From NCBI RefSeq assembly GCF_056746865.1, contig NZ_CM163382.1: 64,000 nucleotides of DNA. The stretch is one strand, 5' to 3'. Below the pieces are notes generated by a model, which saw nothing but the letters and a program-made list of their open reading frames with translations, made no database searches and was not told where the DNA came from. This document shows, one piece after another, positions 1-56,927 of this stretch. Numbering within the stretch: the first letter of the stretch is position 1; every line of letters starts with the position of its first letter. A program made the translations under genes and the position numbers.

Positions 1-89
1 TGATAGAGTGCTCCAAGGCTTCCACCGGTCATCAAATAACCGCCGAAAACTGTACCGAGAACAACCAGGTAACCTAATAAGATAAGCAC
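1..89 (-). CDS. motA: Flagellar motor stator protein MotA, 5' end only (gene continues beyond window start)
   Basis: Reverse complement of 1-89 translates VLILLGYLVVLGTVFGGYLMTGGSLGALYQ, matching the MotA N-terminus; GTG start at 87-89. Confidence 0.8.
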   Translation of the reverse strand, partial: MLILLGYLVVLGTVFGGYLMTGGSLGALY

Positions 90-157
90 GACATCATCCT
101 TCCACTGTTGACCATGACAGGATGTTCAGTCGTCAGGCGTTAACGCGCGATTGGGGC

Positions 158-190
158 AAAAAAAGCAGCGGTACGTCGTTACCGCTGCTG
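158..190 (-). terminator. Rho-independent terminator downstream of flhC
   Basis: GC-rich inverted repeat gcagcggtacgtcgttaccgctgc (165-188) preceded on the plus strand by an A-run, i.e. hairpin plus U-run on the minus strand. Confidence 0.6.
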
Positions 191-214
191 GAATGTTGCG
201 CCTCACCGTATCAG

Positions 215-793
215 TTAAACAGCCTGTACTCTCTGTTCATCCAGCAGTTGTGGGATAATATCGGCAGGATTCTGGGAAAGTTTACGTCTTTTTACTGCCC
301 GGGATGGCGGTTGACATAAGCTGCAGGCAAAGCTGCCAACAGGCTGGTGAGCGTGGGTAATAAAATTGCCGCCGCAGCAGTTGCAGCTGGAAAGTTGCAG
401 TAATCCACTTTCAACAAACCGCACCAATGTCCAGGCACGGGTTAATGCCAGCAGTGGTCCTTCTTCTGCTTGTGGGCACTGTTCAAGGTATAAACGGTAG
501 GCTTTGATCACCGCATCGACGCCATTACACAAACCGGTTTTCAGTAAAAACTGCCATGCATTACAGAACATCGAAGCATGAACGTTTTGTTCCCAGGTCA
601 TAAACCAGTCGGTTGAGAATGGCAGCATGCCTTTCGGCGGTGGGCTTCCGCGCAGTTCTTTATAAAGTTTTATCAGGCGTCCGCGACTTAACTGTGTTTC
701 GCTTTCCAGCATCTGCAAACGAGCGCCCAGGGTGATCAATTCCATTGCCAGCTGAATATCCCGCGCTTCCTGAACAATGCTTTTTTCACTCAT
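215..793 (-). CDS. flhC: Flagellar master regulator subunit FlhC
   Basis: 192 aa [23 protein letters not shown]... recognised as FlhC; immediately follows flhD. Confidence 0.96.
258..284 (-). promoter_or_regulatory. Candidate sigma28 (FliA) promoter for motA, inside the flhC 3' coding region
   Basis: Minus strand reads TAAACTTT, 11 nt spacer, GCCGATAT; close match to the sigma28 consensus TAAAGTTT-N11-GCCGATAA. Confidence 0.5.
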
Positions 794-795
794 GA

Positions 796-1146
796 TCAGG
801 CCCTTTTCTTGCGCAGCGCTTCTTCAGGCTGATTAACATCATTCAGCAAGCGTGTTGAGAGCATGATGCCGGTATGAATTTGCTGGAGATCGTCAACGCG
901 GGAATCTTGCGTCAACTGAGTAATCGTCTGGTGGCTGTCAAAACGGAAGTGACAAACCAGTTGATTGGTTTCTGCCAGCTTAACCATTTGCGGAAGAGTC
1001 AGTGCCGCTAACGTTGTCGCCATTTCTTCATTTATGCCGAGACGAAACATAGCGGACGCTTTGTCCTGAACAATCAAACGCTGTGCAAGTAGTAAATATG
1101 ACAAGTTGATGTCATAAATGTGTTTCAGCAACTCGGAGGTATGCAT
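796..1146 (-). CDS. flhD: Flagellar master regulator subunit FlhD
   Basis: ORF 796-1155; start trimmed to [19 protein letters not shown] to match the known 116 aa FlhD. Confidence 0.95.
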
Positions 1147-1420
1147 TATTCCCACCCAGAATAACCAACTTTATTTTTATGCGGTTTCACCGCACCCCGT
1201 GATGTCGCCGGGAAGCCCCGGTAAAAAATAATTAGCATTAGAATAGTTGCGATAAGCTGCAATAAGCAGAACCACCTTTTTGGTTTAATATGTCCTTACA
1301 AATAGAAATGGGTCTTTACACTTATCTAAGATTTTTCCTAAATCGACGCAACTGTACTCGTCACTACACGCACATACAACGGAGGGGGGCTGCGATTTTC
1401 AATAATGTGTGATGCAGATC
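1147..1420 (-). promoter_or_regulatory. flhDC long 5' UTR and promoter region
   Basis: AT-rich non-coding stretch upstream of flhD; flhDC is known to have a roughly 200 nt leader. Exact promoter elements not resolved by eye. Confidence 0.45.
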
Positions 1421-1925
1421 ACACAAAACACTCAATTACTTAACATAAATGTATAAGTCATACTTTTGTTTTGGGTGTATTTCAATCTGTTAAAAAGTTT
1501 TTCGCTACGCTAGCAAGCAAAAATGAAACAGGAATAATCGAAATGGGATGTTGCGCACAGTCAAAATAACTCACCGTAAATAATCATCTGCTATAAATAA
1601 TCACTTTCATGCAATACCAGATAAGCTATTTTTAAACAGACACTTACCGCACAACAAACTAATTAAATACAAAGAAAGGCAACAATCAACTTAATGTTAA
1701 TGAAATGTTTTGCATATATTAACCACTTGTTTAATGCGGAGAATCAGTACACTATTTTCTTATAATTACATTTGAAATTATATGATCACCGGGAGTGATT
1801 GATTAATTGTCTTTACTAATAATCAGACTAATATTTACCTGTTTGACCGAGTTGGGATTGCGTCGTTTCTCCATTAGGAGTAAAGCTTTAATGTCACCTG
1901 AAGTTCACAGAATAAGGAACAGGTT

Positions 1926-2354
1926 ATGAGCTATAGCAATATTCTTGTCGCTGTTGCAGTTACACCGGAAAGTCAGCAACTGCTGGCAAAAGCGGTATCT
2001 ATCGCCAGGCCAGTAAAGGGACACATCAGTTTAATTACTCTCGCTTCCGACCCGGAAATGTACAATCAATTAGCTGCGCCGATGCTTGAAGATTTACGCA
2101 GCGTGATGCAGGAAGAAACGCAAAGCTTTCTTGATAAGTTAATTCAGGATGCGGGGTATCCCGTTGACAAGACGTTTATTGCCTACGGTGAGTTAAGCGA
2201 ACATATTCTGGAAGTATGTCACAAGCATCATTTCGATTTGGTGATTTGCGGTAATCACAATCACAGTTTCTTTTCGCGAGCATCCTGCTCGGCGAAAAGA
2301 GTTATTGCCTCAAGTGAGGTCGATGTGCTGTTAGTTCCACTTACGGGAGATTAA
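1926..2354 (+). CDS. uspC: Universal stress protein C
   Basis: 142 aa ORF MSYSNILVAVAVTPESQQLL..., Usp-family; position between flhD and otsA. Confidence 0.9.
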   Translation: MSYSNILVAVAVTPESQQLLAKAVSIARPVKGHISLITLASDPEMYNQLAAPMLEDLRSVMQEETQSFLDKLIQDAGYPVDKTFIAYGELSEHILEVCHKHHFDLVICGNHNHSFFSRASCSAKRVIASSEVDVLLVPLTGD

Positions 2355-2360
2355 CCGCTC

Positions 2361-5713
<3,353 letters not shown>

Positions 5714-5727
5714 CATACTCTCCTTAC

Positions 5728-7242
5728 TCAGGCAACAGCCTGGCTGACTTTAGGCATCGCAAGGCTCAGTGCCTGACGCTCATCTGCCTGCTCGTGTAAC
5801 AATTCACCGGCGATTTCACCTTCCCGCATCACCACAATCCGGTCGGCAACGCCGAGGACTTCAGGTAAGTCGCTGGAGGCAAACAGCACCGCCACGCCCT
5901 GCGCCGCCAGCGCATAAATTACGTTATATATTTCGTGCTTAGCGCCAACATCAATGCCGCGCGTAGGTTCATCCAGCAAAATGACCTTCATCTCTTCCGA
6001 TAACCAGCGGCCCAGAATGGCTTTTTGCTGATTTCCGCCTGAGAGATTCATGATCAGTTGCTCCGCGCCCGGCGTTTTGATGTTGAGCGAACGAATGTGG
6101 TGATCGGCATTGTTTTCTTCCCAACCGTTGTTGATTACACAACCGCCGAGCACATGTTTACGTCTGGCACTGATGTTGATATTGTCGCGAACGGAGTGCA
6201 CGGGAATAATGCCTTCCGCTTTGCGATCTTCCGGGCAGAGCATCATGCCTGCGGCAATGGCGTGGCTCGGTTTACGAATATCGATCGGCTGTTGGTCGAT
6301 ATAAACCTGACCGGCGGTGATTTGCGTCCCGCCAAACATGCCTTTCATTAATTCGCTACGCCCCGCCCCTACCAGACCAAACAGCCCAACAATTTCACCA
6401 CTGCGAACCGCCAGACTTATTGGCGTACGCACGCCTGGTGCTTTCACAGCATCAAGACGTAGGCGCTCCTCGCCATAACTACGCGGTTGCCAGCCGTAGA
6501 TATCGCCAATGTCGCGCCCGACCATCGCCTGCACCAGCGCGTCGTGGTCAACCTGCTGCATATCGGTAAAGGTTTTGACATAACGTCCATCTTTAAAGAC
6601 AGTAATGGCATCGCTGAGGGCAAATATTTCTTCCATACGGTGAGAAACGTATAAGATTACCCGCCCCTCTTTTCGCAGTTCACGAATAACGCGGAAAAGA
6701 TTGTCGATTTCACGGGCAGAGAGGGAGCTGGTTGGCTCATCAAAGGCGATAATTTTGGCGTTACGCGCCAGCGCTTTGGCGATTTCAACCATCTGCCACT
6801 GACCAATGGAGAGATATTTCAGCGGCGTGTCCGGGTCAATATCCATACCAAGATGTTTAAGTTGTAAACCCGCCTCATAATTCAGCAATGAGCGATTCAC
6901 AATGCCGCCTTTATGCGGCAGCTGGCCGAGATAGATGTTTTCCGCGACGGTCATTTCCGGCACGAGATGCAGTTCCTGGTAAATAATCGCCACGCCCGCG
7001 TTAAGTGCTGCGGTCGTGTCGGAAAAGGACATTTCCTGCCCATTAATCACTACAGAACCCGTGGTTGGCGCATAGTTGCCGCTGAGGATTTTTAAGAGAG
7101 TTGATTTTCCTGCGCCATTTTCACCCATCAACGCATGAACCTGACCGGCATAGCAGTCAAAACTAATATCCGTCAGCGCCTTAACGCCGGGAAACGTTTT
7201 ACCGATGCCGCGAAATGAGAGATACGGGGTAGACTGTTGCAT
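5728..7242 (-). CDS. araG: L-arabinose ABC transporter ATP-binding protein
   Basis: ORF 5728-7287; start trimmed to [17 protein letters not shown] (504 aa); two ABC domains with Walker [10 protein letters not shown]. Confidence 0.92.
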
Positions 7243-7311
7243 AACGTCTCCGTGAATCACTGGTCGTTCACACCCCCTCTGCATCATGCAGAGGGGAATT
7301 TTTCCGGCAAA

Positions 7312-8301
7312 TTACTTACCGCCTAAACCTTTTTTCTCCAGTTCTTCTTTAAAGTTGTCACGCGTGATCAGTACCACGTCGGTAACTTCGGTAAATTTTG
7401 GCGGTTCAACGTCTTTTGCTACCCAGTTGTAAAGCATTTCGCTGGATTTATAGCCATGTACGTCCGGGCTTGGCAGCAGGGAACCGTAGAAGCCGGTTGC
7501 CTGTGCTTTAGACAGTTCGCTCACCGCATCCACACCGTTAATGCCAATGCCGATGATATCGGCCGCTTTAAAGCCCTGACCTTCCGTCGCGCGTACGCCG
7601 CCCAGCACGGTGCTGTCGTTCATACCGACGATCAGCCAATGTTTAACTTCCGGATGTTGAACCAGCATTGAGTTGGCAGCGTCAAATGCCCCCGGGATGT
7701 CGTTAGATTTGGTAGGTACCTGATAAATTTGTTTTTCCGGGAATCCGGCCGCTTTCAGCGCATCCATAGATCCCGTAGTACGGCGGCGGGCGGTATCCAG
7801 TTCGTTGGCGGTAATCGCCATCACCGCGCTTTCTTTGACATCCCAGCCACGTTTCTGCATCTCTTTATACAGTTCCTGGCCCTGACGTTCGCCAATTTTA
7901 GTCGCCGCCATCATCACCAGCGGAACGGTATCCATTGGCTTACCTTTGGCGTTAACAAACTGGTCATCCACGGCAATGACTTTCATATCGTAGCCACGCG
8001 CTTTCGCGACGATGGCAGAGCCGAGTTTGGGGTCCGGAGTACAAATAACGAAACCTTTTGCGCCACTGGCAGCCAGGCTGTCGATCGCGTTCAATGTTTT
8101 TTCGCCATCCGGCACGGCAATCTTAATAACCTCAAACCCTAAATCCTTCCCGGCTTTATCGGCAAACTTCCATTCGGTCTGGAACCACGGCTCTTCCGGT
8201 TGCTTCACCAGAAAACCGAGCTTCAGGTTCTCCGCCATAGCGGATTGTGACATAACGGCTGCCAGACCAATGGCTGCCAGGGCTTTAGTAAATTTGTGCA
8301 T
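7312..8301 (-). CDS. araF: L-arabinose periplasmic binding protein
   Basis: ORF 7312-8352; start trimmed to MHKFTKALAAIGLAAVMSQSAMA (signal peptide), 329 aa. Confidence 0.92.
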   Translation of the reverse strand: MHKFTKALAAIGLAAVMSQSAMAENLKLGFLVKQPEEPWFQTEWKFADKAGKDLGFEVIKIAVPDGEKTLNAIDSLAASGAKGFVICTPDPKLGSAIVAKARGYDMKVIAVDDQFVNAKGKPMDTVPLVMMAATKIGERQGQELYKEMQKRGWDVKESAVMAITANELDTARRRTTGSMDALKAAGFPEKQIYQVPTKSNDIPGAFDAANSMLVQHPEVKHWLIVGMNDSTVLGGVRATEGQGFKAADIIGIGINGVDAVSELSKAQATGFYGSLLPSPDVHGYKSSEMLYNWVAKDVEPPKFTEVTDVVLITRDNFKEELEKKGLGGK

Positions 8302-9097
8302 GGTTCTCTCCAGCTTTAGTGTCGTTTTGTGTAGGGCAAAAACGAATGACATTCGTTAAATTAATCGGAAAACAAAGCATTACCTTTTAACTAAAAGATA
8401 AGTGACTGTGTTGACATAGTTTTAGCGAGAAATTAATTCTCCATAGGAGAGCAATATCACATCGCAGAATTACAGTGAGAACGTGCATAAATTTAGCGGG
8501 AAAAGACATAAGGGAAAGCCAATTTGTCAGACAAATTGTCGAATGCACAGCAGATTAATCCATAAGATTAGCCTGGAAATCCTTGTTGTCTTTGGTACCC
8601 ATGCGGGATGTCTTCTTTTTAACCAGTCAATAGGCCGCATTACCTGGCGTTGAGTTTTTGAAATGGTGTAATAACCGCAACTCAAAGATGTGGAAAATGC
8701 ACGTCATTCATTTCGTCATTAATTATCACTGTGCTCATTAATTAACAGAACACGTATAATGAGAGCCATCTCGCAAAAATGAAAAAACGTTTTATAAAAT
8801 CATCACTTCATCATGAATTCAAATTCATTGATTAATATCAACAAGATACAAAAAGCACTATCATTAAAATTCATTGCAGTTACATTGATTTCATCAATGA
8901 AATGTAAAAATATATAAACTTGATGATTTAAGCATTTTCTTATACCCGTTCAGACGTTATTCTTATTTCAGATCATCGTCAGAATTGACTCCACGATCAC
9001 ATTTCGGACCGGCAGAAAGGAATTATTCTGCAAACAGTAATTATGGTGTTTTGATTTATCTTGCACCTCTCCACTTCTGGATATAAGGATATTAGGT

Positions 9098-9601
9098 ATG
9101 GCAACCGCTGGAATGCTTCTCAAACTCAACTCTCAAATGAACCGCGAGTTTTACGCATCCAATCTCTACCTTCACCTGAGTAACTGGTGTTCTGAACAGA
9201 GTCTGAACGGCACCGCCACTTTCCTTCGCGCCCAGGCACAGAGTAATGTGACCCAAATGATGCGCATGTTTAACTTTATGAAGAGTGTCGGCGCTACCCC
9301 CATCGTTAAAGCCATTGATGTTCCCGGTGAAAAACTGAACTCTCTGGAAGAACTGTTCCAAAAAACGATGGAAGAATACGAGCAACGTTCTAGTACGTTG
9401 GCACAGTTAGCCGATGAAGCGAAAGAACTGAATGATGATTCAACCGTCAATTTCCTGCGCGATCTGGAAAAAGAACAGCAGCATGATGGTCTGTTGCTGC
9501 AAACCATTCTTGATGAAGTGCGCAGTGCGAAACTTGCGGGTATGTGCCCTGTGCAGACCGACCAACATGTTCTGAATGTCGTGTCACACCAGCTGCATTG
9601 A
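9098..9601 (+). CDS. ftnB: Ferritin-like protein FtnB
   Basis: 167 aa ORF with ferritin fold, paralogous to the ftnA product downstream. Confidence 0.88.
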
Positions 9602-9647
9602 TCATCATCGGCGCTAATGCATTGCGCCGATGAAGGTTTTGAGAAAC

Positions 9648-9684
9648 CGCTGCCTCATCTGTTTGAAGCAGCGGTTTTTTTAAT
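9648..9684 (+). terminator. Rho-independent terminator after ftnB
   Basis: Inverted repeat ccgctgc...gcagcgg followed by ttttttta. Confidence 0.6.
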
Positions 9685-9931
9685 GGGATTCACCCTGTGG
9701 GGTAAACTTGAGTTCAATAAGCGCGATGGCTTTTTGGATTGCCCGCATGGTGACCGGGTCTGCGGCGGCGGGATGGTTAGTAAAGTCGATATTCTTCAGC
9801 TGACTGGACATTTTTTCACGAACTTCAACGGGCGCGATTACATCGAGAACATCCAGAATTTGTTTGATAACCAACTGGCAAGCAACCACATCAGAAACCA
9901 GTTCCTGATCGGCATTCAGCGGCTGGGACAT
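9680..9931 (-). CDS. yecJ: Uncharacterized protein YecJ
   Basis: 83 aa [23 protein letters not shown]... recognised as YecJ. Confidence 0.85.
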
Positions 9932-10012
9932 CGTAAACTCCTGATAGCATTTTGAAAGCCGTTATAGTAGCGGCTTCACATCTTCAGCGATAGTCACATC
10001 CACCGTCATCAG

Positions 10013-10045
10013 GACACAAAAAAACCTGCCGGAGCAGGTTTTTTG
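10013..10045 (-). terminator. Rho-independent terminator downstream of azuC
   Basis: aaaaaaaacctgccggagcaggttttttgtt: hairpin flanked by A-run and T-run (bidirectional in form). Confidence 0.65.
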
Positions 10046-10132
10046 TTATCGGAACATATTGCCTGGCGGTACGTCTTTGAACGTCTTGCAATAGTTATTG
10101 AACATACTTTTCAGTATTTTGCGCAGTTTCAT
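10046..10132 (-). CDS. azuC: Small protein AzuC (28 aa), carried on the IsrB/AzuCR small RNA
   Basis: Minus-strand translation by hand: MKLRKILKSMFNNYCKTFKDVPPGNMFR then stop. Below the ORF-track length cutoff. Confidence 0.8.
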   Translation of the reverse strand: MKLRKILKSMFNNYCKTFKDVPPGNMFR

Positions 10133-10394
10133 CGCGGCACTCCGACCATTTGTTATACAGGTGTTATTGTCTTTGCACTTATAATATGACAACCATCACA
10201 AAAATCAATCTTTATGTGATGTGAATCACATAAATACCCCTTTAATGTTATAAAAATGATAATCAAAAAGCAGCTACCCCATTTCTGACACCTACAGATG
10301 GCAAGAAATAGCGCCTGCCAGGCGTCTTTTCCGGCCATTGTCGCAGCGCTGTAACGCGTAAAATAGTGCTTTCTTTTACTCTTCTGGCTGGACC

Positions 10395-10718
10395 ATGAGA
10401 CTTCTGATTCTGACTCTTTCATTAATAACGCTGGCGGGGTGTACGGTTACTCGCCAGGCCCATGTGAGCGAAGTTGACGCGGCAACAGGTATTGTACGGT
10501 TGGTTTATGACCAGGCTTTTTTGCAGCATGCCCGTACCGATCGTTATGTCAGTCGCGGGATCGCCGATCGCGCATGCCAGCAGGAAGGCTATACCCACGC
10601 TATCCCCTTTGGTCAGCCAGTAGGCAACTGTAGCCTTTTTGCGGGTTCCTTATGTTTAAATACGGAATTCACTTTGTCATATCAGTGCCATCATTCCGCC
10701 TTCCCTGTCTTTCTCTAA
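10395..10718 (+). CDS. yecR: Lipoprotein YecR
   Basis: 107 aa ORF with lipoprotein signal MRLLILTLSLITLAGC. Confidence 0.85.
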   Translation: MRLLILTLSLITLAGCTVTRQAHVSEVDAATGIVRLVYDQAFLQHARTDRYVSRGIADRACQQEGYTHAIPFGQPVGNCSLFAGSLCLNTEFTLSYQCHHSAFPVFL

Positions 10719-10889
10719 ATGTTTTAATCAGCGAGGGGGATCTTCGCTGATTAAATAAATAGCGGTAATGCGTTTTATTCCCATTCGTATTTTTAATAAA
10801 TGAAGTTTATATTTTACCTTTTGCAAATAATAAAATAACAAATTATAGTGACGCCACAGCAACAAATATAACCTTTGTGGAGCACTATC

Positions 10890-11387
10890 ATGCTGAAACC
10901 AGAAATGATTGAAAAACTTAATGAGCAGATGAACCTGGAACTGTACTCTTCACTGCTTTATCAGCAAATGAGCGCCTGGTGCAGCTATCATACCTTCGAA
11001 GGTGCTGCCGCGTTCCTGCGCCGCCACGCCCAGGAAGAGATGACACATATGCAGCGTCTGTTTGATTACCTGACTGATACCGGAAACTTACCACGTATTA
11101 ATACCGTTGAATCTCCGTTTGCTGAATATTCTTCACTTGATGAATTATTCCAGGAAACCTATAAACACGAACAATTAATCACGCAGAAAATTAACGAACT
11201 GGCTCATGCTGCAATGACCAATCAGGACTACCCAACATTTAATTTCCTGCAATGGTATGTTTCTGAGCAGCATGAAGAAGAGAAACTGTTCAAATCGATT
11301 ATTGATAAATTAAGCCTGGCAGGCAAAAGCGGCGAAGGTCTGTATTTTATCGACAAAGAACTCTCTACCCTCGACACACAAAACTAA
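10890..11387 (+). CDS. ftnA: Ferritin FtnA
   Basis: ORF 10875-11387; start trimmed to [21 protein letters not shown] (165 aa). Confidence 0.93.
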
Positions 11388-11424
11388 TGCTCTCAGGCGG
11401 CAGGTTTTCTGCCGCCGTTTCAAA

Positions 11425-11664
11425 TCAGTGACGGCAAATCTTACTCTGATCGGTCGAAAAACCTTCTTCTGAAGGTATAAATTTGCCTTTTGCTGCCAGA
11501 AACGCCACCAGCTCTCCCGCAGTCATCCCTTCTGCCGAGCAGGTGTGAAAACGTGCCTGTTCACCAAAACGCGCTTTAATTGCTGCTTCCAGACTGGCAT
11601 GCGTATATTGCTCGCCTGATTCAATCATCATATTTAACACTTCATGACCGTGAATAGAGTCCAT
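11425..11664 (-). CDS. yecH: Uncharacterized protein YecH
   Basis: 79 aa ORF MDSIHGHEVLNMMIESGEQY...; convergent with ftnA. Confidence 0.85.
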   Translation of the reverse strand: MDSIHGHEVLNMMIESGEQYTHASLEAAIKARFGEQARFHTCSAEGMTAGELVAFLAAKGKFIPSEEGFSTDQSKICRH

Positions 11665-11744
11665 CGTTCCTCCTCAAAAAAAGCCTAGCGTAGCGATTGC
11701 CGCTTATGAAGACTTTGCGCCAGCGCAGAACTAAACGCTTTTAT

Positions 11745-11785
11745 TGTACATTTATATTTACACTATATGTAACGTCGGTTTGACG
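11745..11785 (+). promoter_or_regulatory. Two adjacent TyrR boxes in the tyrP promoter
   Basis: TGTACATTTATATTTACA (11745-11762) is a near-perfect TyrR box (TGTAAA-N6-TTTACA); TGTAACGTCGGTTTGACG (11768-11785) is a weaker second box. Confidence 0.55.
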
Positions 11786-11853
11786 AAGCAGCCGTTATGC
11801 CTTAACCTGCGCCGCAGATATCACTCATAAAGATCGTCAGGACAGAAGAAAGC

Positions 11854-13065
11854 GTGAAAAACAGAACTCTGGGAAGTGTTTTTATCGTGGCGGGAACCAC
11901 AATTGGCGCAGGCATGCTGGCAATGCCGCTGGCTGCGGCCGGTGTTGGTTTTAGCGTTACGTTAATCTTGTTGATTGGGCTTTGGGCGTTGATGTGCTAC
12001 ACGGCGCTATTACTGCTGGAGGTGTACCAGCATGTTCCGGCAGATACCGGTCTTGGCACGCTGGCAAAACGCTATCTGGGACGCTACGGTCAGTGGCTGA
12101 CGGGCTTCAGTATGATGTTCTTAATGTATGCTCTGACTGCGGCATACATCAGCGGTGCCGGTGAATTGTTGGCCTCCAGCATCAGCGACTGGACAGGTAT
12201 TTCAATGTCGGCAACCGCTGGCGTGCTGTTGTTCACTTTTGTTGCTGGTGGCGTGGTTTGTGTCGGGACATCGCTGGTCGATTTGTTTAACCGTTTTCTG
12301 TTCAGCGCCAAAATTATTTTTCTGGTGGTGATGCTGGTATTGCTGCTACCGCATATTCACAAAGTGAATCTTTTAACCCTGCCGTTGCAACAGGGGCTGG
12401 CTCTGTCCGCAATCCCGGTGATTTTTACCTCGTTTGGTTTTCACGGTAGCGTGCCGAGTATTGTCAGCTATATGGATGGCAACGTTCGTAAGCTACGCTG
12501 GGTGTTTATAACCGGTAGTGCTATCCCCCTGGTGGCATATATTTTCTGGCAGGTGGCAACGCTTGGCAGCATTGATTCAACAACCTTTATGGGATTGCTG
12601 GCTAATCATGCTGGATTAAACGGGCTGTTACAGGCGTTACGCGAAATGGTGGCCTCTCCGCATGTTGAGCTGGCAGTGCATTTATTTGCTGATTTAGCCC
12701 TCGCCACGTCATTTCTCGGCGTTGCGTTAGGCTTATTTGATTATCTGGCTGATTTGTTTCAGCGTTCAAATACCGTTGGTGGACGATTGCAAACTGGTGC
12801 AATTACCTTTCTGCCGCCGTTGGCGTTTGCACTGTTTTATCCACGAGGATTTGTGATGGCGCTGGGTTACGCCGGTGTGGCGCTGGCGGTACTGGCATTG
12901 ATTATCCCTTCACTATTGACCTGGCAAAGCAGAAAGCACAATCCTCAGGCGGGTTACCGGGTGAAAGGTGGTCGTCCGGCGCTGGTGGTGGTGTTTCTCT
13001 GTGGTATTGCTGTGATTGGCGTGCAATTTTTGATTGCGGCAGGGTTGTTACCAGAAGTGGGGTGA
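11854..13065 (+). CDS. tyrP: Tyrosine-specific transport protein
   Basis: 403 aa membrane ORF starting at [28 protein letters not shown]... Confidence 0.93.
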
Positions 13066-13126
13066 TCAGATAGCCTCAAATTCCTTATTGGGTGCCAGAA
13101 TTAACGCTGACACCCAATTTGACTTC

Positions 13127-13792
13127 TTAATGCAGGCAGCACTGCTTAAATTTCTTACCACTGCCGCACGGACAAGGATCGTTACGCCCCGGTTTCTCTT
13201 CTGCTTTGATCGGTTGCTGAACAGCTTTTTCCTGCGGATGCGCCATCCAGTATGCATGTAAATCAAGCGCCGCCAGTCGAATGGCATCTACGCTCTCTTC
13301 AAACGCTTCTGGCGACATCTTCTCTACCCGCTCGAAGTTGTCCTCAGTACCGTGCAGCGCTATCGCCTCCAGCGCTGGTTTTAACGAATCGGGCAATGTT
13401 GACCAGTCAGAAAGTGCCACGCCCCGCATATAGCCAAAGCACCACTCCTCAACAATCGTCAGCTCGCTGCCATCAACTTCTCGCAAGCCGAATAGCGGCT
13501 CAAACTGCTCCGGGAATTCGTTCAGACGCTCTGCGGTATCGGCCATATGTTGAAAGGCCAGGTTCATAAAGCGTGTCATCTCTTTCTCAGACGCCCAGCG
13601 CGGCACATAGTCAGCCCCACCCCACACGGCAACCAGCCACTGTGCCGGTTCAATCTCTTGCGGAGAACTCAACACCGCCGTCAATAAACCGTCCAGCTCC
13701 GCCACATCAAGGATGGCGTGGTCAGTGTTGTATTTGGTCAGAATATCGTCCAGCCATTCCAACTCACTTTCGTTTAACGGTCCCGTTTTCAT
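13127..13792 (-). CDS. yecA: UPF0149-family protein YecA with C-terminal SEC-C motif
   Basis: 221 aa ORF ending ...[17 protein letters not shown] (SEC-C metal-binding motif). Confidence 0.9.
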
Positions 13793-13920
13793 ACGCTTTT
13801 CCTTGTGGATCTCAACTCGCCAGCACCTATCTTACATGCCGGTCCGTATCAGAGATACTTTTTGAGTGGCTTTGCCGGTGATTAAAAATTAAGGAGGGTG
13901 TAACGACAAGTTGCAGGCAC

Positions 13921-13945
13921 AAAAAAACCACCCGAAGGTGGTTTC
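13921..13945 (-). terminator. Rho-independent terminator of the glyW-cysT-leuZ tRNA operon
   Basis: aaaaaaaccacccgaaggtggttt: hairpin with U-run on the minus strand just downstream of leuZ. Confidence 0.65.
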
Positions 13946-13987
13946 ACGACACTGCTTATTGCTTTGATTTTATTCTTATCTTTCCCA

Positions 13988-14074
13988 TGGTACCCGGAGC
14001 GGGACTTGAACCCGCACAGCGCGAACGCCGAGGGATTTTAAATCCCTTGTGTCTACCGATTCCACCATCCGGGC
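13988..14074 (-). tRNA. leuZ: tRNA-Leu (anticodon UAA)
   Basis: Reverse complement matches tRNA-Leu GCCCGGATGGTGGAATCGGTAGACACAAGGGATTTAAAATCCCTCGGCGTTCGCGCTGTGCGGGTTCAAGTCCCGCTCCGGGTACCA. Confidence 0.95.
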
Positions 14075-14086
14075 TCGGGAAGAAAG

Positions 14087-14160
14087 TGGAGGCGCGTTCC
14101 GGAGTCGAACCGGACTAGACGGATTTGCAATCCGCTACATAACCGCTTTGTTAACGCGCC
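14087..14160 (-). tRNA. cysT: tRNA-Cys (anticodon GCA)
   Basis: Reverse complement matches GGCGCGTTAACAAAGCGGTTATGTAGCGGATTGCAAATCCGTCTAGTCCGGTTCGACTCCGGAACGCGCCTCCA. Confidence 0.95.
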
Positions 14161-14213
14161 AAATTCTTCAGGCCTTTCAGCCAGACATCCGCTGACGCCG
14201 ATGTCTTTTAAAC

Positions 14214-14289
<76 letters not shown>

Positions 14290-20665: not shown

Positions 20666-22557
<1,892 letters not shown>

Positions 22558-22644
22558 ATTCACCCCGAATGTTGTTATGTCTGTTTGCAGTGTAGAGCCA
22601 TTGTTTGTAAACACAAAAACAACTCCGCTACATCTTATTCTTAT

Positions 22645-23196
22645 TTAATATATATCAGAAGCAGGCAGGCTGGAGGATTTCTGCACAAGTCCGGTACAGG
22701 TTTGGCGCTGATAGTGTTGATACTTCCGTAATGCGATGCGGTAATTGTTGGTGCTGGTGGTGGGCAGCCACGGGGCGAGGATTTCATCAAGGAAACCGTC
22801 CTGCAGCTGATCGAGGGAAATATTTTGCTCGTGTAGATGATTACCCAAACGGCGCAGACGAACGACATATTCACGCACCGTACCTGGGCTCATTTCAGTT
22901 TGCTCAAAAAGAAATTGCTTAAAGCCGATAATATCGAAAAAATCACTCTGCGTTTTGCAGTGTAAATCACCGCAAAATCGGCACAATGCCGCCCATGACT
23001 GTTGTTCCACTTGCCAGCCATTTTCATCAAGCAGCGTGTCCAGGCGGGTAATCTCGATTTTATTCACTATTTTGCCGTCGCGAACTAAGGTAATGCGATC
23101 GAGTAATTTACGGCAATGCGCGCAATGGGTCTGGCTGTGTTTAAAGTCTTTAAGATAGCGGCTTAATGGCCGTCTTTTCAGGTGCTGCACCATCAT
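22645..23196 (-). CDS. fliZ: Flagellar regulatory protein FliZ
   Basis: ORF 22645-23232; start trimmed to MMVQHLKRRPLSRYLKDFKHSQTHCAHCRKLL (183 aa). Confidence 0.9.
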   Translation of the reverse strand: MMVQHLKRRPLSRYLKDFKHSQTHCAHCRKLLDRITLVRDGKIVNKIEITRLDTLLDENGWQVEQQSWAALCRFCGDLHCKTQSDFFDIIGFKQFLFEQTEMSPGTVREYVVRLRRLGNHLHEQNISLDQLQDGFLDEILAPWLPTTSTNNYRIALRKYQHYQRQTCTGLVQKSSSLPASDIY

Positions 23197-23241
23197 TAAG
23201 AACTCCTGGTAGTCAAAGTTAAAATGCGGCATTTACTGACG

Positions 23242-23961
23242 TTATAACTTACCCAGTTTAGTGCGTAACCGTTTAATGGCCTGGCTGTGTAACTGACTGA
23301 CCCGCGATTCCCCGACCTCCAGCACTGCACCAATCTCTTTGAGATTCAGCTCTTCCTGGTAATAGAGGGTTAATACCAGTTTTTCGCGCTCCGGCAACAT
23401 TTCGATGGCTTCCATCACCCGCTGGCGCAGATTACTGTCCAGCAGTTGTTGTAGCGGGTTTTCTCGCTGATGATCATCAGTAACCAGTTCGATGCTATCG
23501 CCGTGCTCTTCGCGCCACTCATCGTAGGAGAAGAGCTGGCTGTTATTGGTGTCGAGCAACATTTGGCGATAATCGGCTATATCGATCCCTAAACGTTCCG
23601 CTACCTCAGTTTCCGTGGCGTTGCGGCCAAGTTCCTGCTCCAGTTGCCCTATTGCCTGTGCCACTTCACGCGCGTTGCGTCGCACGCTGCGCGGCACCCA
23701 GTCACGGCTGCGAAGTTCATCCAGCATAGCGCCACGGATACGCTGCACTGCGTAAGTTGTAAATGCCGTTCCTTGTAGGGCGTCATAGCGTTCGACGGCA
23801 TTAAGTAACCCAATGCCGCCCGCCTGTAGCAGATCGTCAAGTTCCACGCTCGCGGGCAGTCGAACCTGCAGGCGCAATGCTTCGTGACGCACCAGCGGGA
23901 CATAACGCTGCCACAGCGAGTGTTTATCCATTACACCTTCAGCGGTATAGAGTGAATTCAC
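23242..23961 (-). CDS. fliA: Flagellar sigma factor sigma28 (FliA)
   Basis: 239 aa ORF MNSLYTAEGVMDKHSLWQRYVPLVRHEALRL... Confidence 0.96.
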   Translation of the reverse strand: MNSLYTAEGVMDKHSLWQRYVPLVRHEALRLQVRLPASVELDDLLQAGGIGLLNAVERYDALQGTAFTTYAVQRIRGAMLDELRSRDWVPRSVRRNAREVAQAIGQLEQELGRNATETEVAERLGIDIADYRQMLLDTNNSQLFSYDEWREEHGDSIELVTDDHQRENPLQQLLDSNLRQRVMEAIEMLPEREKLVLTLYYQEELNLKEIGAVLEVGESRVSQLHSQAIKRLRTKLGKL

Positions 23962-24083
23962 GATAAACAGCCCTGCGTTATATGAGTTATCGGCATGATT
24001 ATCCGTTTCTGCAGGGTTTTTAATCGGACGATTAGTGGGTGAAATGAGGGGTTATTTGGGGGTTACCGGTAAATTTCATGCAG

Positions 24084-24106
24084 AAAAAACCCCGCCGGTG
24101 GCGGGG
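24084..24106 (-). terminator. Rho-independent terminator about 175 nt downstream of the fliC stop
   Basis: Minus strand reads gcttccccgccaccggcggggtttttt (hairpin plus U-run). Confidence 0.6.
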
Positions 24107-24138
24107 AAGCACCTTGCTGACAAATTGCGCTTTATGTT

Positions 24139-24238
24139 GCCGGATGCGGCGTAAACGCCTTATCTGGCCTACAAAAATGTGCAAATTCAATAAATTGCAA
24201 TTCAACTTGTAGGCCTGATAAGCGCAGCGCATCAGGCA
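24139..24238. repeat. Pair of inverted REP elements (BIME) in the fliC 3' region
   Basis: gccggatgcggcgtaaacgccttatctggcctac and gtaggcctgataagcgcagcgcatcaggca are classic REP palindromes in opposite orientation. Confidence 0.75.
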
Positions 24239-24280
24239 ATTTGGCGTTGCCGTCAGTCTCAGTTAATCAGGTTACAACGA

Positions 24281-25624
24281 TTAACCCTGCAGCAGAGACA
24301 GAACCTGCTGCGGTACCTGGTTAGCTTTAGACAGCACAGAGTTACCCGCCTGCTGGATGATCTGCGCTTTCGACATGTTGGACACTTCGGTCGCATAGTC
24401 GGCGTCCTGAATACGGGACTGCGCTTCAGACAGGTTGGTGGTGGTGTTATTCAGGTTGGTGACCGCAGAATCCAGACGGTTTTGTACGGCACCGAGGGAG
24501 GAGCGGAAAGTATCAACTTGCGAGATAGCTTTGTCTAAAAGTGCCAGCGGATCGTTGGTTGCAGTACCAGAAAATGTTGCTGTTGCCGCTGTTTTTACAG
24601 AACCATCAACATCGAGTTCATCGGTAAGTTGGATTTTTGTGTCTTCATTTGTTGCAGCGTCACCACCGTTTTCAATTGCATCCTTACCGTCTGCACCAGC
24701 AAGGTAATCTTTGCCTTGAATAGTAACATAGCCAACAGCCGCGCCAGCACTATTCGTCGTGACCTTGATAGGCTGACCTGTCTGTGTTGCTGTGGTAACA
24801 CCGTTCGCAGGATCAGTGAAAGTAACATTGGTGGTATTAAGCGTAACAACGCCACCAGCATTAACGGAAGCCGAATAGAAGTCATTACCAGATTGAACAA
24901 CATAGGTTCCTGTCGCTTTACCATCCGCGCTTTGTACGTTATGTAGGGACAAGCCTGATGTATCACTTATTCCCAATGTTTTAGCCATTGCGGCAGCAGC
25001 GGTATCGTTCGCACCAAATTTAACCGTAACCGGGGCATCGCCAGCATTAGCACCAGGAACTGTAGTTATCGCATCGCTAACTTTTAATGCGTTCCCTGAT
25101 ACCGAGAAACCTTTCAATCCCAGCGTTGAAGAATCAATTTTCTGCAAATCGATAGAGATGGTCTGCCCGTCATTCGCGCCAACCTGAATCTTCATCGAAC
25201 CGTCTTTCGCCAGCACGTTCACGCCGTTGAACTGGGTCTGACCGGAAACGCGGTCAATTTCGTCGAGACGGGATTTGATTTCGTCCTGAATGGAGTCCAG
25301 ATCCGAATCAGAGTTAGTCCCGGTAGAAGCCTGAACCGTCAGTTCACGAATACGCTGTAAGTTGTTGTTGATTTCGGACAGCGCGCCTTCAGTGGTCTGT
25401 GCAACAGAAATACCGTCGTTGGCGTTACGTGCAGCCTGAGTCAGGCCTTTAATGTTAGAAGTAAAACGGTTAGCAATCGCCTGACCTGCGGCGTCATCCT
25501 TCGCGCTGTTAATACGCAAGCCAGAAGACAGACGCTCGATAGAACTCGACAGCGCAGACTGGTTCTTGTTGATATTATTTTGAGTGATCAGCGAGAGGCT
25601 GTTGGTATTAATGACTTGTGCCAT
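24281..25624 (-). CDS. fliC: Flagellin, non-K-12 H-antigen allele (447 aa)
   Basis: Conserved N-terminus MAQVINTNSLSLITQNNINKNQSALSSSIERLSSGLRINSAKDDAAGQAIANRF and C-terminus ...QVPQQVLSLLQG; central region differs from the 498 aa K-12 flagellin. Confidence 0.95.
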   Translation of the reverse strand: MAQVINTNSLSLITQNNINKNQSALSSSIERLSSGLRINSAKDDAAGQAIANRFTSNIKGLTQAARNANDGISVAQTTEGALSEINNNLQRIRELTVQASTGTNSDSDLDSIQDEIKSRLDEIDRVSGQTQFNGVNVLAKDGSMKIQVGANDGQTISIDLQKIDSSTLGLKGFSVSGNALKVSDAITTVPGANAGDAPVTVKFGANDTAAAAMAKTLGISDTSGLSLHNVQSADGKATGTYVVQSGNDFYSASVNAGGVVTLNTTNVTFTDPANGVTTATQTGQPIKVTTNSAGAAVGYVTIQGKDYLAGADGKDAIENGGDAATNEDTKIQLTDELDVDGSVKTAATATFSGTATNDPLALLDKAISQVDTFRSSLGAVQNRLDSAVTNLNNTTTNLSEAQSRIQDADYATEVSNMSKAQIIQQAGNSVLSKANQVPQQVLSLLQG

Positions 25625-25700
25625 GATTCGTTATCCTATATTGCAAGTCGTTGATTACGTATTGGGTTTCCACCCGTCGGCTCAATCGCCGTCAACCCTG

Positions 25701-25727
25701 TTATCGTCTGTCGTAAAACAACCTTTA
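25701..25727 (-). promoter_or_regulatory. sigma28 class 3 promoter of fliC
   Basis: Minus strand reads TAAAGGTT, 11 nt spacer, GACGATAA. Confidence 0.75.
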
Positions 25728-25819
25728 GAATTTTTTTCACAAACAGCCATTTTTTGTTAGTCGCCGAAATACTCTTTTCTCTGCCCCTTATTCCCGCTAT
25801 TAAAAAAAACAATTAAACG

Positions 25820-25846
25820 TAAACTTTGCGCAATTCAGGCCGATAA
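25820..25846 (+). promoter_or_regulatory. sigma28 promoter of fliDST
   Basis: TAAACTTT, 11 nt spacer, GCCGATAA, about 45 nt upstream of the fliD start. Confidence 0.75.
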
Positions 25847-25889
25847 CCCCGGTATTCGTTTTACGTGTCGAAAGATAAAAGGAAATCGC

Positions 25890-27296
25890 ATGGCAAGTAT
25901 TTCATCGCTGGGAGTCGGGTCAGGTCTGGATTTAAGTTCAATCCTTGATAGCCTCACCGCCGCGCAAAAAGCGACGCTAACCCCTATTTCAAATCAGCAA
26001 TCGTCGTTTACCGCTAAACTTAGCGCCTACGGTACGCTGAAAAGCGCGCTGACGACTTTCCAGACCGCCAATACTGCATTGTCTAAAGCCGATCTTTTTT
26101 CCGCCACCAGCACTACCAGCAGCACCACCGCGTTCAGTGCCACCACCGCGGGTAACGCCATCGCCGGGAAATACACCATCAGTGTCACCCATCTGGCGCA
26201 GGCGCAAACCCTGACCACGCGCACCACCAGAGACGATACGAAAACGGCGATCGCCACCAGCGACAGTAAACTCACCATTCAACAAGGCGGCGACAAAGAT
26301 CCGATTACCATTGATATCAGCGCGGCTAACTCGTCGTTAAGCGGGATCCGTGATGCCATCAACAATGCAAAAGCAGGCGTAAGCGCAAGCATCATTAACG
26401 TGGGTAACGGTGAATATCGTCTGTCAGTCACATCAAATGACACCGGCCTTGATAATGCGATGACACTCTCGGTCAGCGGTGATGATGCGCTACAAAGTTT
26501 TATGGGCTATGACGCCAGTGCCAGCAGCAACGGTATGGAAGTCTCGGTCGCCGCCCAGAATGCGCAGCTGACGGTCAACAACGTCGCCATTGAGAACAGC
26601 AGCAACACCATCAGCGACGCGCTGGAAAACATCACCCTGAACCTGAACGATGTCACCACGGGCAACCAGACGCTAACCATCACTCAGGACACCTCCAAAG
26701 CGCAAACAGCGATTAAAGACTGGGTGAATGCTTATAACTCGCTAATAGATACCTTCAGCAGCCTGACCAAATACACCGCCGTAGATGCGGGAGCTGATAG
26801 CCAGAGTTCTAGCAATGGCGCACTGCTCGGCGACTCCACGTTGCGGACGATTCAGACGCAGTTGAAGTCGATGCTGAGTAATACCGTCAGTTCTTCCAAC
26901 TATAAAACGCTGGCGCAGATTGGTATCACGACCGATCCCAGCGATGGCAAACTGGAACTGGATGCCGACAAACTCACCGCTGCACTGAAAAAAGATGCCA
27001 GCGGCGTAGGTGCATTGATTGTTGGCGATGGTAAAAAAACCGGCATCACGACCACCATCGGCAGCAACCTGACCAGTTGGCTTTCGACAACGGGCATTAT
27101 TAAAGCCGCTACCGATGGCGTTAGTAAGACCCTGAATAAATTAACTAAAGACTACAACGCCGCCAGCGATCGCATTGATGCGCAGGTCGCGCGCTATAAA
27201 GAACAATTTACCCAACTGGACGTTTTAATGACCTCGTTAAACAGCACCAGCAGCTACTTAACGCAGCAGTTCGAAAACAACAGTAATTCCAAGTAA
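25890..27296 (+). CDS. fliD: Flagellar filament capping protein
   Basis: 468 aa ORF MASISSLGVGSGLDLSSILDSLTAAQKATLTPISNQQ... Confidence 0.95.
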   Translation: MASISSLGVGSGLDLSSILDSLTAAQKATLTPISNQQSSFTAKLSAYGTLKSALTTFQTANTALSKADLFSATSTTSSTTAFSATTAGNAIAGKYTISVTHLAQAQTLTTRTTRDDTKTAIATSDSKLTIQQGGDKDPITIDISAANSSLSGIRDAINNAKAGVSASIINVGNGEYRLSVTSNDTGLDNAMTLSVSGDDALQSFMGYDASASSNGMEVSVAAQNAQLTVNNVAIENSSNTISDALENITLNLNDVTTGNQTLTITQDTSKAQTAIKDWVNAYNSLIDTFSSLTKYTAVDAGADSQSSSNGALLGDSTLRTIQTQLKSMLSNTVSSSNYKTLAQIGITTDPSDGKLELDADKLTAALKKDASGVGALIVGDGKKTGITTTIGSNLTSWLSTTGIIKAATDGVSKTLNKLTKDYNAASDRIDAQVARYKEQFTQLDVLMTSLNSTSSYLTQQFENNSNSK

Positions 27297-27320
27297 TCAA
27301 TATTCATCGGGAGACAGGTC

Positions 27321-46597: not shown

Positions 46598-46684
46598 AAA
46601 TCCCGACCCTGAGGGGGTCGGGATGAAACTTGCTTAAGCAAGAAGCACTTAAAAAATTCGTTACACCAGGAAATCTGATGTGTT
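46598..46684 (-). ncRNA. dsrA: DsrA small regulatory RNA
   Basis: Reverse complement matches DsrA: AACACATCAGATTTCCTGGTGTAACGAATTTTTTAAGTGCTTCTTGCTTAAGCAAGTTTCATCCCGACCCCCTCAGGGTCGGGATTT. Confidence 0.93.
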
Positions 46685-54939: not shown

Positions 54940-55086
54940 GACTCAATCATTTTTTGAACAAATAGATAAATTTTGCGCAACGGCAGTGAATACAGGAAAA
55001 ATCGTTTTGAGCGATTTTATTTATCTTTGATATCGGCTTTATTAATTCATTTAATCAATATATTAGCACTGATTACAATTATACCT

Positions 55087-55177
55087 TTTTATTATTCTGT
55101 GTCATGATGCTTCCGTTATTAGCCTTTTATCGTCTTGTTTATATTTTTTGGGCCGGCATGATGCCGGCTTTTTTTTA
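55087..55177 (+). ncRNA. rseX: Candidate small RNA ending in an orphan terminator (position expected for RseX)
   Basis: Hairpin ggccggcatgatgccggc plus T8 at 55151-55177 with no plus-strand CDS upstream; RseX is known to lie between yedR and the yedS porin gene. 5' end not determined. Confidence 0.4.
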
Positions 55178-56229
55178 TGCCTTCATTAATGTGCGCCTGA
55201 TCACACCAGCCGTTTGGCGCAACAATCATTGATACCCCCTATGTTTCCGCTCAACTCATAACATATTGATATACATTTATAATTTTCATGAATATTTATA
55301 TTTAGAATTCATAATTCTGAATTATATTAAATAGATTAGAAACATTTTGAAATCTTTTAAATACATTTGTTACATGTAATCCTTAAAATAAAATGAACTT
55401 CATAGAATAGTATCCAAATGTGCTTTTTTTGGATAACGGCACTTATTGATATATTCATGAAGATTATAATCACAAGGGAATACATAATGAAAAGAAAAGT
55501 TCTGGCAATGCTGGTCCCGGCGTTATTAGTTGCTGGCGCAGCAAATGCGGCTGAAATTTACAATAAAGATGGCAATAAAGTTGATTTCTACGGCAAGATG
55601 GTTGGCGAACGCATCTGGTCAAATACTGATGATAATAACAGCGAAAACGAAGATACCTCCTATGCTCGTTTCGGTGTTAAAGGTGAAACCCAAATCACCA
55701 GCGAACTGACTGGTTTTGGTCAGTTTGAATACAACCTCGACGCCAGCAAGCCCGAAGGCTCTAATCAGGAAAAAACCCGTTTAACCTTCGCAGGTTTGAA
55801 ATATAACGAGTTAGGATCTTTCGACTATGGTCGTAACTACGGTGTTGCTTATGATGCCGCAGCTTATACCGATATGTTAGTTGAATGGGGTGGTGATTCC
55901 TGGGCTTCCGCTGACAACTTCATGAACGGTCGTACCAACGGTGTTGCAACCTACCGTAACTCTGATTTCTTTGGTCTGGTTGATGGTCTGAATTTTGCTG
56001 TGCAATATCAAGGTAAGAACAGCAATCGTGGCGTTACTAAACAAAACGGTGATGGCTATGCGTTGTCTGTAGACTACAACATCGAAGGTTTTGGTTTTGT
56101 AGGTGCATATAGCAAATCTGATCGTACTAATGAACAAGCTGGTGACGGCTACGGTGATAACGCTGAAGTGTGGTCATTAGCAGCCAAGTATGATGCAAAT
56201 AATATCTATGCAGCGGTAATGACTCCAAC

Positions 56230-56733
56230 TTATTGATAGTGTTTTATGTTCAGATAATGCCCGATGACTTTGTCATGCAGCTCCACCGATTTTGAGAACG
56301 ACAGCGACTTCCGTCCCAGCCGTGCCAGGTGCTGCCTCAGATTCAGGTTATGCCGCTCAATTCGCTGCGTATATCGCTTGCTGATTACGTGCAGCTTTCC
56401 CTTCAGGCGGGATTCATACAGCGGCCAGCCATCCGTCATCCATATCACCACGTCAAAGGGTGACAGCAGGCTCATAAGACGCCCCAGCGTCGCCATCGTG
56501 CGTTCACCGAATACGTGCGCAACAACCGTCTTCCGGAGCCTGTCATACGCGTAAAACAGCCAGCGCTGGCGCGATTTAGCCCCGACATAGCCCCACTGTT
56601 CGTCCATTTCCGCGCAGACGATGACGTCACTGCCCGGCTGTATGCGCGAGGTTACCGACTGCGGCCTGAGTTTTTTAAGTGACGTAAAATCGTGTTGAGG
56701 CCAACGCCCATAATGCGGGCAGTTGCCCGGCAT
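56230..56733 (-). CDS. insB: IS1 InsB reading frame (expressed as InsAB' transposase by -1 frameshift)
   Basis: 167 aa ORF ...[52 protein letters not shown]...; overlaps insA 3' end. Confidence 0.9.
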
Positions 56734-56927
56734 CCAACGCCATTCATGGCCATATCAATGATTTTCTGGTGCGTACCGGGTTGAGAAGCGGTGTAAGTGA
56801 ACTGCAGTTGCCATGTTTTACGGCAGTGAGAGCAGAGATAGCGCTGATGTCCGGCGGTGCTTTTGCCGTTACGCACCACCCCGTCAGTAGCTGAACAGGA
56901 GGGACAGCTGATAGAAACAGAAGCCAC
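56652..56927 (-). CDS. insA: IS1 protein InsA
   Basis: 91 aa [46 protein letters not shown]... Confidence 0.93.

Follow-up and report, generated by a model that had tools for sequence, protein, structure and literature searches.

Assignment of the chromosomal fliC gene of an Escherichia coli strain to the known H-antigen genotype H52

The stretch of DNA analysed here, 64,000 nucleotides of contig NZ_CM163382.1 from NCBI RefSeq assembly GCF_056746865.1 (hereafter, the window), contains a flagellin gene that is very probably (about 93%) the chromosomal fliC gene in the form of a known allele, H52: that is, a gene with conserved ends that would build the filament core, with an exposed centre, and with its sequence borne on a segment acquired by recombination. 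The finding is of an H-antigen allele already catalogued, in its usual locus, and is not new. It has been known since the late 1990s that E. coli fliC combines conserved polymerisation ends with a hypervariable exposed centre and undergoes whole-gene replacement by recombination, and the H52 finding adds nothing new on flagellin biology; the H52 genotype narrows the lineage of the source E. coli, and its value is limited to strain typing. Coordinates of the gene, its parts and its surroundings are given in Table 1.

Table 1. The fliC gene and associated features, in window coordinates
Feature	Position	Strand	Basis or remark
fliA (sigma-28, transcribes fliC)	23242..23961	-	99.2% DNA identity to K-12, full length
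Patch of clustered differences relative to ATCC 8739, ~1.4 kb	24076..25490	.	putative recombinant segment bearing the allele
Terminator-like GC-rich hairpin and T-run	24084..24106	-	terminator scan; ~175 nt past the fliC stop
fliC coding sequence, H52 genotype	24281..25624	-	447 aa plus stop, 1344 bp; list of open reading frames
Conserved C-terminal part, residues 357-447 plus stop	24281..24556	-	predicted D1/D0 helices; 91% amino acid identity to K-12
Variable central region, residues 178-356, H-antigen determinant (predicted outer domains)	24557..25093	-	divergence from K-12 and H25
In-silico H52 diagnostic amplicon	24758..24925	.	all three H52 oligos with zero mismatches
H52-R primer site	24758-24776	+	PMC11529414, Table S8-5
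H52 probe site	24824-24848		PMC11529414, Table S8-5
H52-F primer site	24906-24925	-	PMC11529414, Table S8-5
Conserved N-terminal part, residues 1-177	25094..25624	-	predicted D0/D1 helices, by homology to solved flagellins
sigma-28 (FliA) promoter of fliC	25701..25727	-	TAAAGGTT, 11-nt spacer, GACGATAA; read from the sequence
fliD-fliS-fliT (filament cap, FliC export chaperone, regulator)	25890..28096	+	98.4-99.3% identical to K-12, full length

Assignment of the H type

We compared the window fliC with a panel of 53 published H-genotyping oligo sets, each consisting of primers and a probe (PMC11529414, Table S8-5). The results indicate that the H52 primers and probe match the gene with 0/0/0 mismatches and in the correct orientation, that the H52 set is the sole perfect set among the 53, and that each of the other 52 sets has at least 7 mismatches, the two primers summed. 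Controls confirm the behaviour of the panel: K-12 fliC is typed H48 at 0/0/0, while three alleles of 1332 bp, taken from other genomes, are typed H25 at 0/0/1, the same three alleles giving 0/0/0 with an independent H25 assay (PMC4441469). A second, independent comparison uses the mismatch fingerprint reported in the H1/H12 qPCR paper for the H52 reference strain C2187-69 (AY250028.1), in which the fliCH1 set counts 0/1/1 and the fliCH12 set 0/3/1. The window fliC shows 0/1/1 mismatches with the fliCH1 oligos and 0/3/1 mismatches with the fliCH12 oligos, corresponding exactly to the published counts. Because the H52 oligos alone match perfectly, and because the mismatch pattern equals that of the reference strain, we conclude that the allele is, as judged from diagnostic oligos totalling ~190 nt rather than from full-length identity, fliC-H52. 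The preliminary description of this DNA had left the H type unassigned; the oligo panel and the mismatch fingerprint now supply it.

The exact window protein is present in UniProt as Q842A8, which is found on 444 contigs in a large protein collection and which probably belongs to the reference set deposited in 2003. The literature searched contained no mention of Q842A8.

Locus and expression of the gene

The product of the open reading frame begins with MAQVINTNSL, ends with SLLQG, and matches Flagellin_N at residues 5-140 of its 447 residues (Pfam PF00669, E=9e-47) and Flagellin_C at residues 361-445 (PF00700, E=1e-31). It scores 637.4 bits with the NCBIfam FliC/FljB model NF005953 (cut-off 619) and 511.1 bits with a second FliC/FljB model, NF005294 (cut-off 387); for this protein NCBIfam has no H-type-specific model, only the general FliC/FljB family. 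Eight complete genomes contain a gene identical in DNA to the window fliC and annotated as FliC/FljB family flagellin. The helical end domains, the curated NCBIfam score, and the chromosomal position together with a sigma-28 promoter identify the product as a flagellin of this family.

In the Salmonella FliC structures (1io1, 1ucu) the D0/D1 coiled-coil core, from which the filament is built and which contains the TLR5 site, consists of the conserved ends, and the centre of a flagellin forms the outer D2/D3 domains, which are exposed and antigenic. Strong matches of the window protein to the PDB are confined to its N- and C-terminal parts, e.g. with the E. coli filaments 7sqj, 7sn7, 8cxm and 7sn4 and with Salmonella 1ucu; with chain 7sqj_A, residues 1-156 are identical in the printed alignment. 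None of the PDB matches is a solved structure covering the H52 outer domains, and an AlphaFold2 model on a 12-sequence alignment (mean pLDDT 51.6, pTM 0.29) is too poor to confirm their fold. By homology to the Salmonella and E. coli flagellin structures, we infer that the conserved helices of H52 FliC, residues 1-177 and 357-447, would make up the D0/D1 core by which subunits assemble into a filament, and that the 179-residue centre would form the exposed outer domains that antibodies recognise as the H antigen.

The order of genes is as in K-12, that is, tcyJ-fliZ-fliA-fliC followed by divergent fliD-fliS-fliT-amyA, and the flanking genes are 97.7-99.3% identical to those of K-12, as are 99.2% of positions in the fliC-fliD intergenic region and 98.1% of positions in the fliC-fliA intergenic region. 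The sigma-28 consensus is TAAAGTTT-N11-GCCGATAA. The fliC promoter agrees with this consensus at 7/8 positions in each of its two elements, one base being off per element, and a search of the sequence for the exact consensus pattern gave no match. The hairpin of Table 1 lies at the end of the fliC 3' UTR, which corresponds to the FliX sRNA region of K-12, where fliX is annotated directly downstream of fliC. In the fliC-fliA intergenic region, on the strand opposite to the 3' UTR, there is at 24175-24216 (+) a gathering-level Rfam match to the ES036 (CssrF) sRNA (42.9 bits; cut-off 37.6). Far from the locus, a 60-nt stretch at 63222-63281 resembles a portion of the fliA-fliC intergenic region of K-12 (82% identity) and may be a short dispersed repeat. 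The open reading frames of two neighbours are longer in the list than annotated, 195 aa vs. 183 aa for fliZ (22645-23232, -) and 285 aa vs. 266 aa for tcyJ (21757-22614, -); because upstream in-frame start codons account for the added length, neither is a real difference.

As in K-12, this sigma-28 promoter would drive transcription of fliC; export of FliC would involve FliS, and FliD would form the cap, the genes for both being adjacent. Each of the 22 flagellar genes of the window (flhDC, fliZ, fliA, fliC, fliDST, fliE-R) is full length, and we infer from the intact fliC gene, its promoter, and the 21 other intact flagellar genes that the H52 antigen is probably expressed. It is unlikely that the genotype is H52 and the expressed H antigen is another or none, whether through repression of fliC by a second flagellin locus, such as one of the flkA, fllA or flmA type elsewhere in the genome, or through loss of motility. 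In favour of this reading, types such as H3, H17, H35, H36, H44, H47 and H53-H55 are encoded outside fliC, flkA, fllA, flmA and flnA are target genes in the published H-genotyping panel (PMC11529414), and in the MS-H study the first test of the H52 reference strain yielded no serotyping titre; against a second locus, however, no other flagellin gene occurs within the 64-kb window, and against non-expression, fliC, its promoter, flhDC, fliA, fliZ, and fliD-T and fliE-R are all intact.

Other content of the window is as follows. A porin gene at ~55488-57338 is split by an IS1A-family element (IS1, ~56231-56928), as identified through 99.99% near-identity to the annotated genome of EC17CM13. A DUF5503 gene at ~32585-33719, between yedK and fliE, is annotated in near-identical EC17CM13, and also in ATCC 8739, as frameshifted and containing an internal stop. 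Rfam matches at 46598-46684 (-), 55086-55175 (+) and 13991-14289 (-) correspond to DsrA, rseX and three tRNAs; the three tRNAs are Leu, Cys and Gly according to the matching EC17CM13 annotation and are ordinary content for the region.

Relation to H25 and H56

The next best oligo sets after H52 are H56, with mismatches of 3/3/4, and then H25, with mismatches of 3/5/9. H25 was first suspected from the length of the gene, and H56 was suspected from Escherichia ruysiae members of the protein cluster; both were rejected. It is highly improbable that the window fliC, instead of being H52, is an H25 variant or an H56-like allele, the two types that resemble it in length and in part of the sequence. 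Within complete E. coli genomes no other allele is nearer than H25, which is colinear and has a centre that is 56% identical, but the mismatches with the panel oligos are accompanied by mismatches of 9/3/8 with the independent H25 assay, the published H25 primer has no match in the window gene within three mismatches, and the window gene is 1344 bp vs. 1332 bp (443 aa) for H25. For H56, the 90% protein cluster includes E. ruysiae flagellins, and E. ruysiae is often typed H56-like; however, the same E. ruysiae paper reports both H56-like and H52-like alleles in that species, and the E. ruysiae members of the cluster are 96% identical to the window protein. Since the species is reported with H52-like alleles and its proteins are this similar, the cluster members fit the H52 call. 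In addition, E. marmotae is typically H56, with alleles 99.7-100% identical to the H56 reference, yet species-representative genomes, when scanned with six peptides of the H52 centre, yielded no relative of it, though E. marmotae carries reference-type H56.

Comparison with K-12

The fliC product of K-12 MG1655 (b1923) has 498 aa, and the difference from 447 aa in the window was correctly noted in the preliminary description. In BLASTP the two proteins are 60% identical overall, and the 77 gap positions all lie mid-protein. Amino acid identity is 92.1% for residues 1-177 and 91.2% for the last 91 residues, whereas the centre (residues 178-356, 179 aa) has 59 residues identical to the 230-aa centre of K-12, or ~33%. 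At the level of DNA, the alignment with K-12 fliC is limited to 24281-24560 and 25119-25624 (88-90% identity), and 24561-25118 is unaligned. The results of BLASTP, of region-wise amino acid identity, and of DNA alignment bear out the earlier statement that the termini are conserved and that the centre is different and shorter, and the full-length alignment that had been proposed as a possible refutation returned 60%, not identity. The earlier statement that the strain is of an H type other than that of K-12 likewise holds, the H48 oligos mismatching at 8/7/11, and H48 was rejected as a type for the window gene.

Two details of the earlier account are adjusted. The interval first proposed for the different centre, 24480-25090, covers most of the variable region, since the unaligned DNA spans 24561-25118, but ~77 nt of it runs into the conserved C-terminal part. 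Similarly, residues ~180-380 had been given as variable; the divergence of the protein stops near residue 356, and not 380.

One might suppose that an internal deletion of ~51 residues in a K-12-type (H48) flagellin gave rise to the shorter protein, and the confinement of the whole length difference to the central region would agree with this. The idea has next to no chance of being correct and is already refuted by the alignments, given that the remaining centre is so divergent in protein and unaligned as DNA, that the H48 oligos do not match, and that the fliC ends are 88-90% identical vs. 98-99% for the flanks.

Origin and distribution of the allele

As a reference for the origin of the segment we used ATCC 8739, the closest backbone that is not H52, in which fliC is 1719 bp. 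Differences between the window and ATCC 8739 are clustered in a patch of ~1.4 kb (Table 1). Positions 25500-27499 show 2 differences only, fliD being essentially identical, and the FliD and FliS protein accessions are identical between EC17CM13 and ATCC 8739. As judged from the distribution of SNPs, the clustered patch fits the known pattern in which homologous recombination exchanges a segment of about the size of fliC. Because the cluster starts in the fliC 3' UTR, most of the region equivalent to FliX seems to belong to the exchanged segment. The 3' UTR interval itself, 24076-24276, has 12 differences from ATCC 8739, yet is 98.1% identical to K-12.

The allele would differ from K-12 because the whole ~1.4 kb fliC segment has an evolutionary history of its own, and the allele would have entered an otherwise ordinary E. 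coli backbone by homologous recombination in the flanks and the conserved ends of the gene. Outside the fliC region, positions 1-14000 of the window (flhDC-otsBA-araFGH-ftnAB-tyrP) are identical to F11 and to several further genomes, not all of which belong to the 11 H52 genomes described below, and differ at 80 positions from the H52 strain EC17CM13, while fliC and its 24-kb surroundings are identical to those of EC17CM13; this difference points to mosaic ancestry within the lineage.

In a search with the central 537 nt (sensitive mode), 11 of 5426 complete E. coli genomes (0.2%) match at 99% DNA identity or more, and the allele is thus rare; strains with exactly this allele include F11, EC17CM13 and D2. 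The other central-region hits, in 147 genomes, are partial and lie in the 60-80% identity band (65.6-69.4% among those listed), and those examined are H25; within complete E. coli genomes, H25 is the nearest relative of the H52 centre. With the whole gene as query, complete E. coli genomes outside the 11 match through the gene ends only. The 11 H52 genomes have the 24-kb surroundings of fliC in common at 99.8% identity or more, which means that complete genomes show the allele in a single local backbone. The closest complete genomes (F11, HCM-25C-3, 300490, EC17CM13 and others) include many from multidrug-resistant strains, from humans and poultry; the literature searched by strain name gave no serotype for the 11 matching strains.

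It is conceivable, though doubtful, that the H52 allele moved as the ~1.4 kb patch between E. coli and E. ruysiae, a cryptic-clade Escherichia. If it did, the fliC locus would be an example of recent inter-species exchange of an H antigen.

Discussion

The closest known counterpart of the window gene is the fliC-H52 reference (C2187-69, AY250028.1), from which no difference was detected at the oligo sites or in the mismatch pattern. With fliC-H25 (443 aa; e.g. AY250007 and O145:H25 alleles) the window gene shares near-equal length, a colinear sequence with few gaps, termini that are 95% identical, and, in the centre, the motifs LSLHN, DGKAT, YVVQSG and VTLNT; it differs from fliC-H25 in a centre that is only 56% identical as protein, in DNA identity of 65.6-69.4% over the partial matches among those listed, and in oligos that do not match. 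Since the two centres are 56% identical, colinear, and interrupted by few gaps, H52 and H25 would share one outer-domain architecture. With K-12 FliC (H48; PDB 8cxm) and Salmonella FliC (1ucu, 1io1), H52 FliC shares the family, the locus, the sigma-28 promoter, and the predicted D0/D1 core, whereas the centre of K-12 FliC is 51 residues longer than that of H52 and ~33% identical to it.
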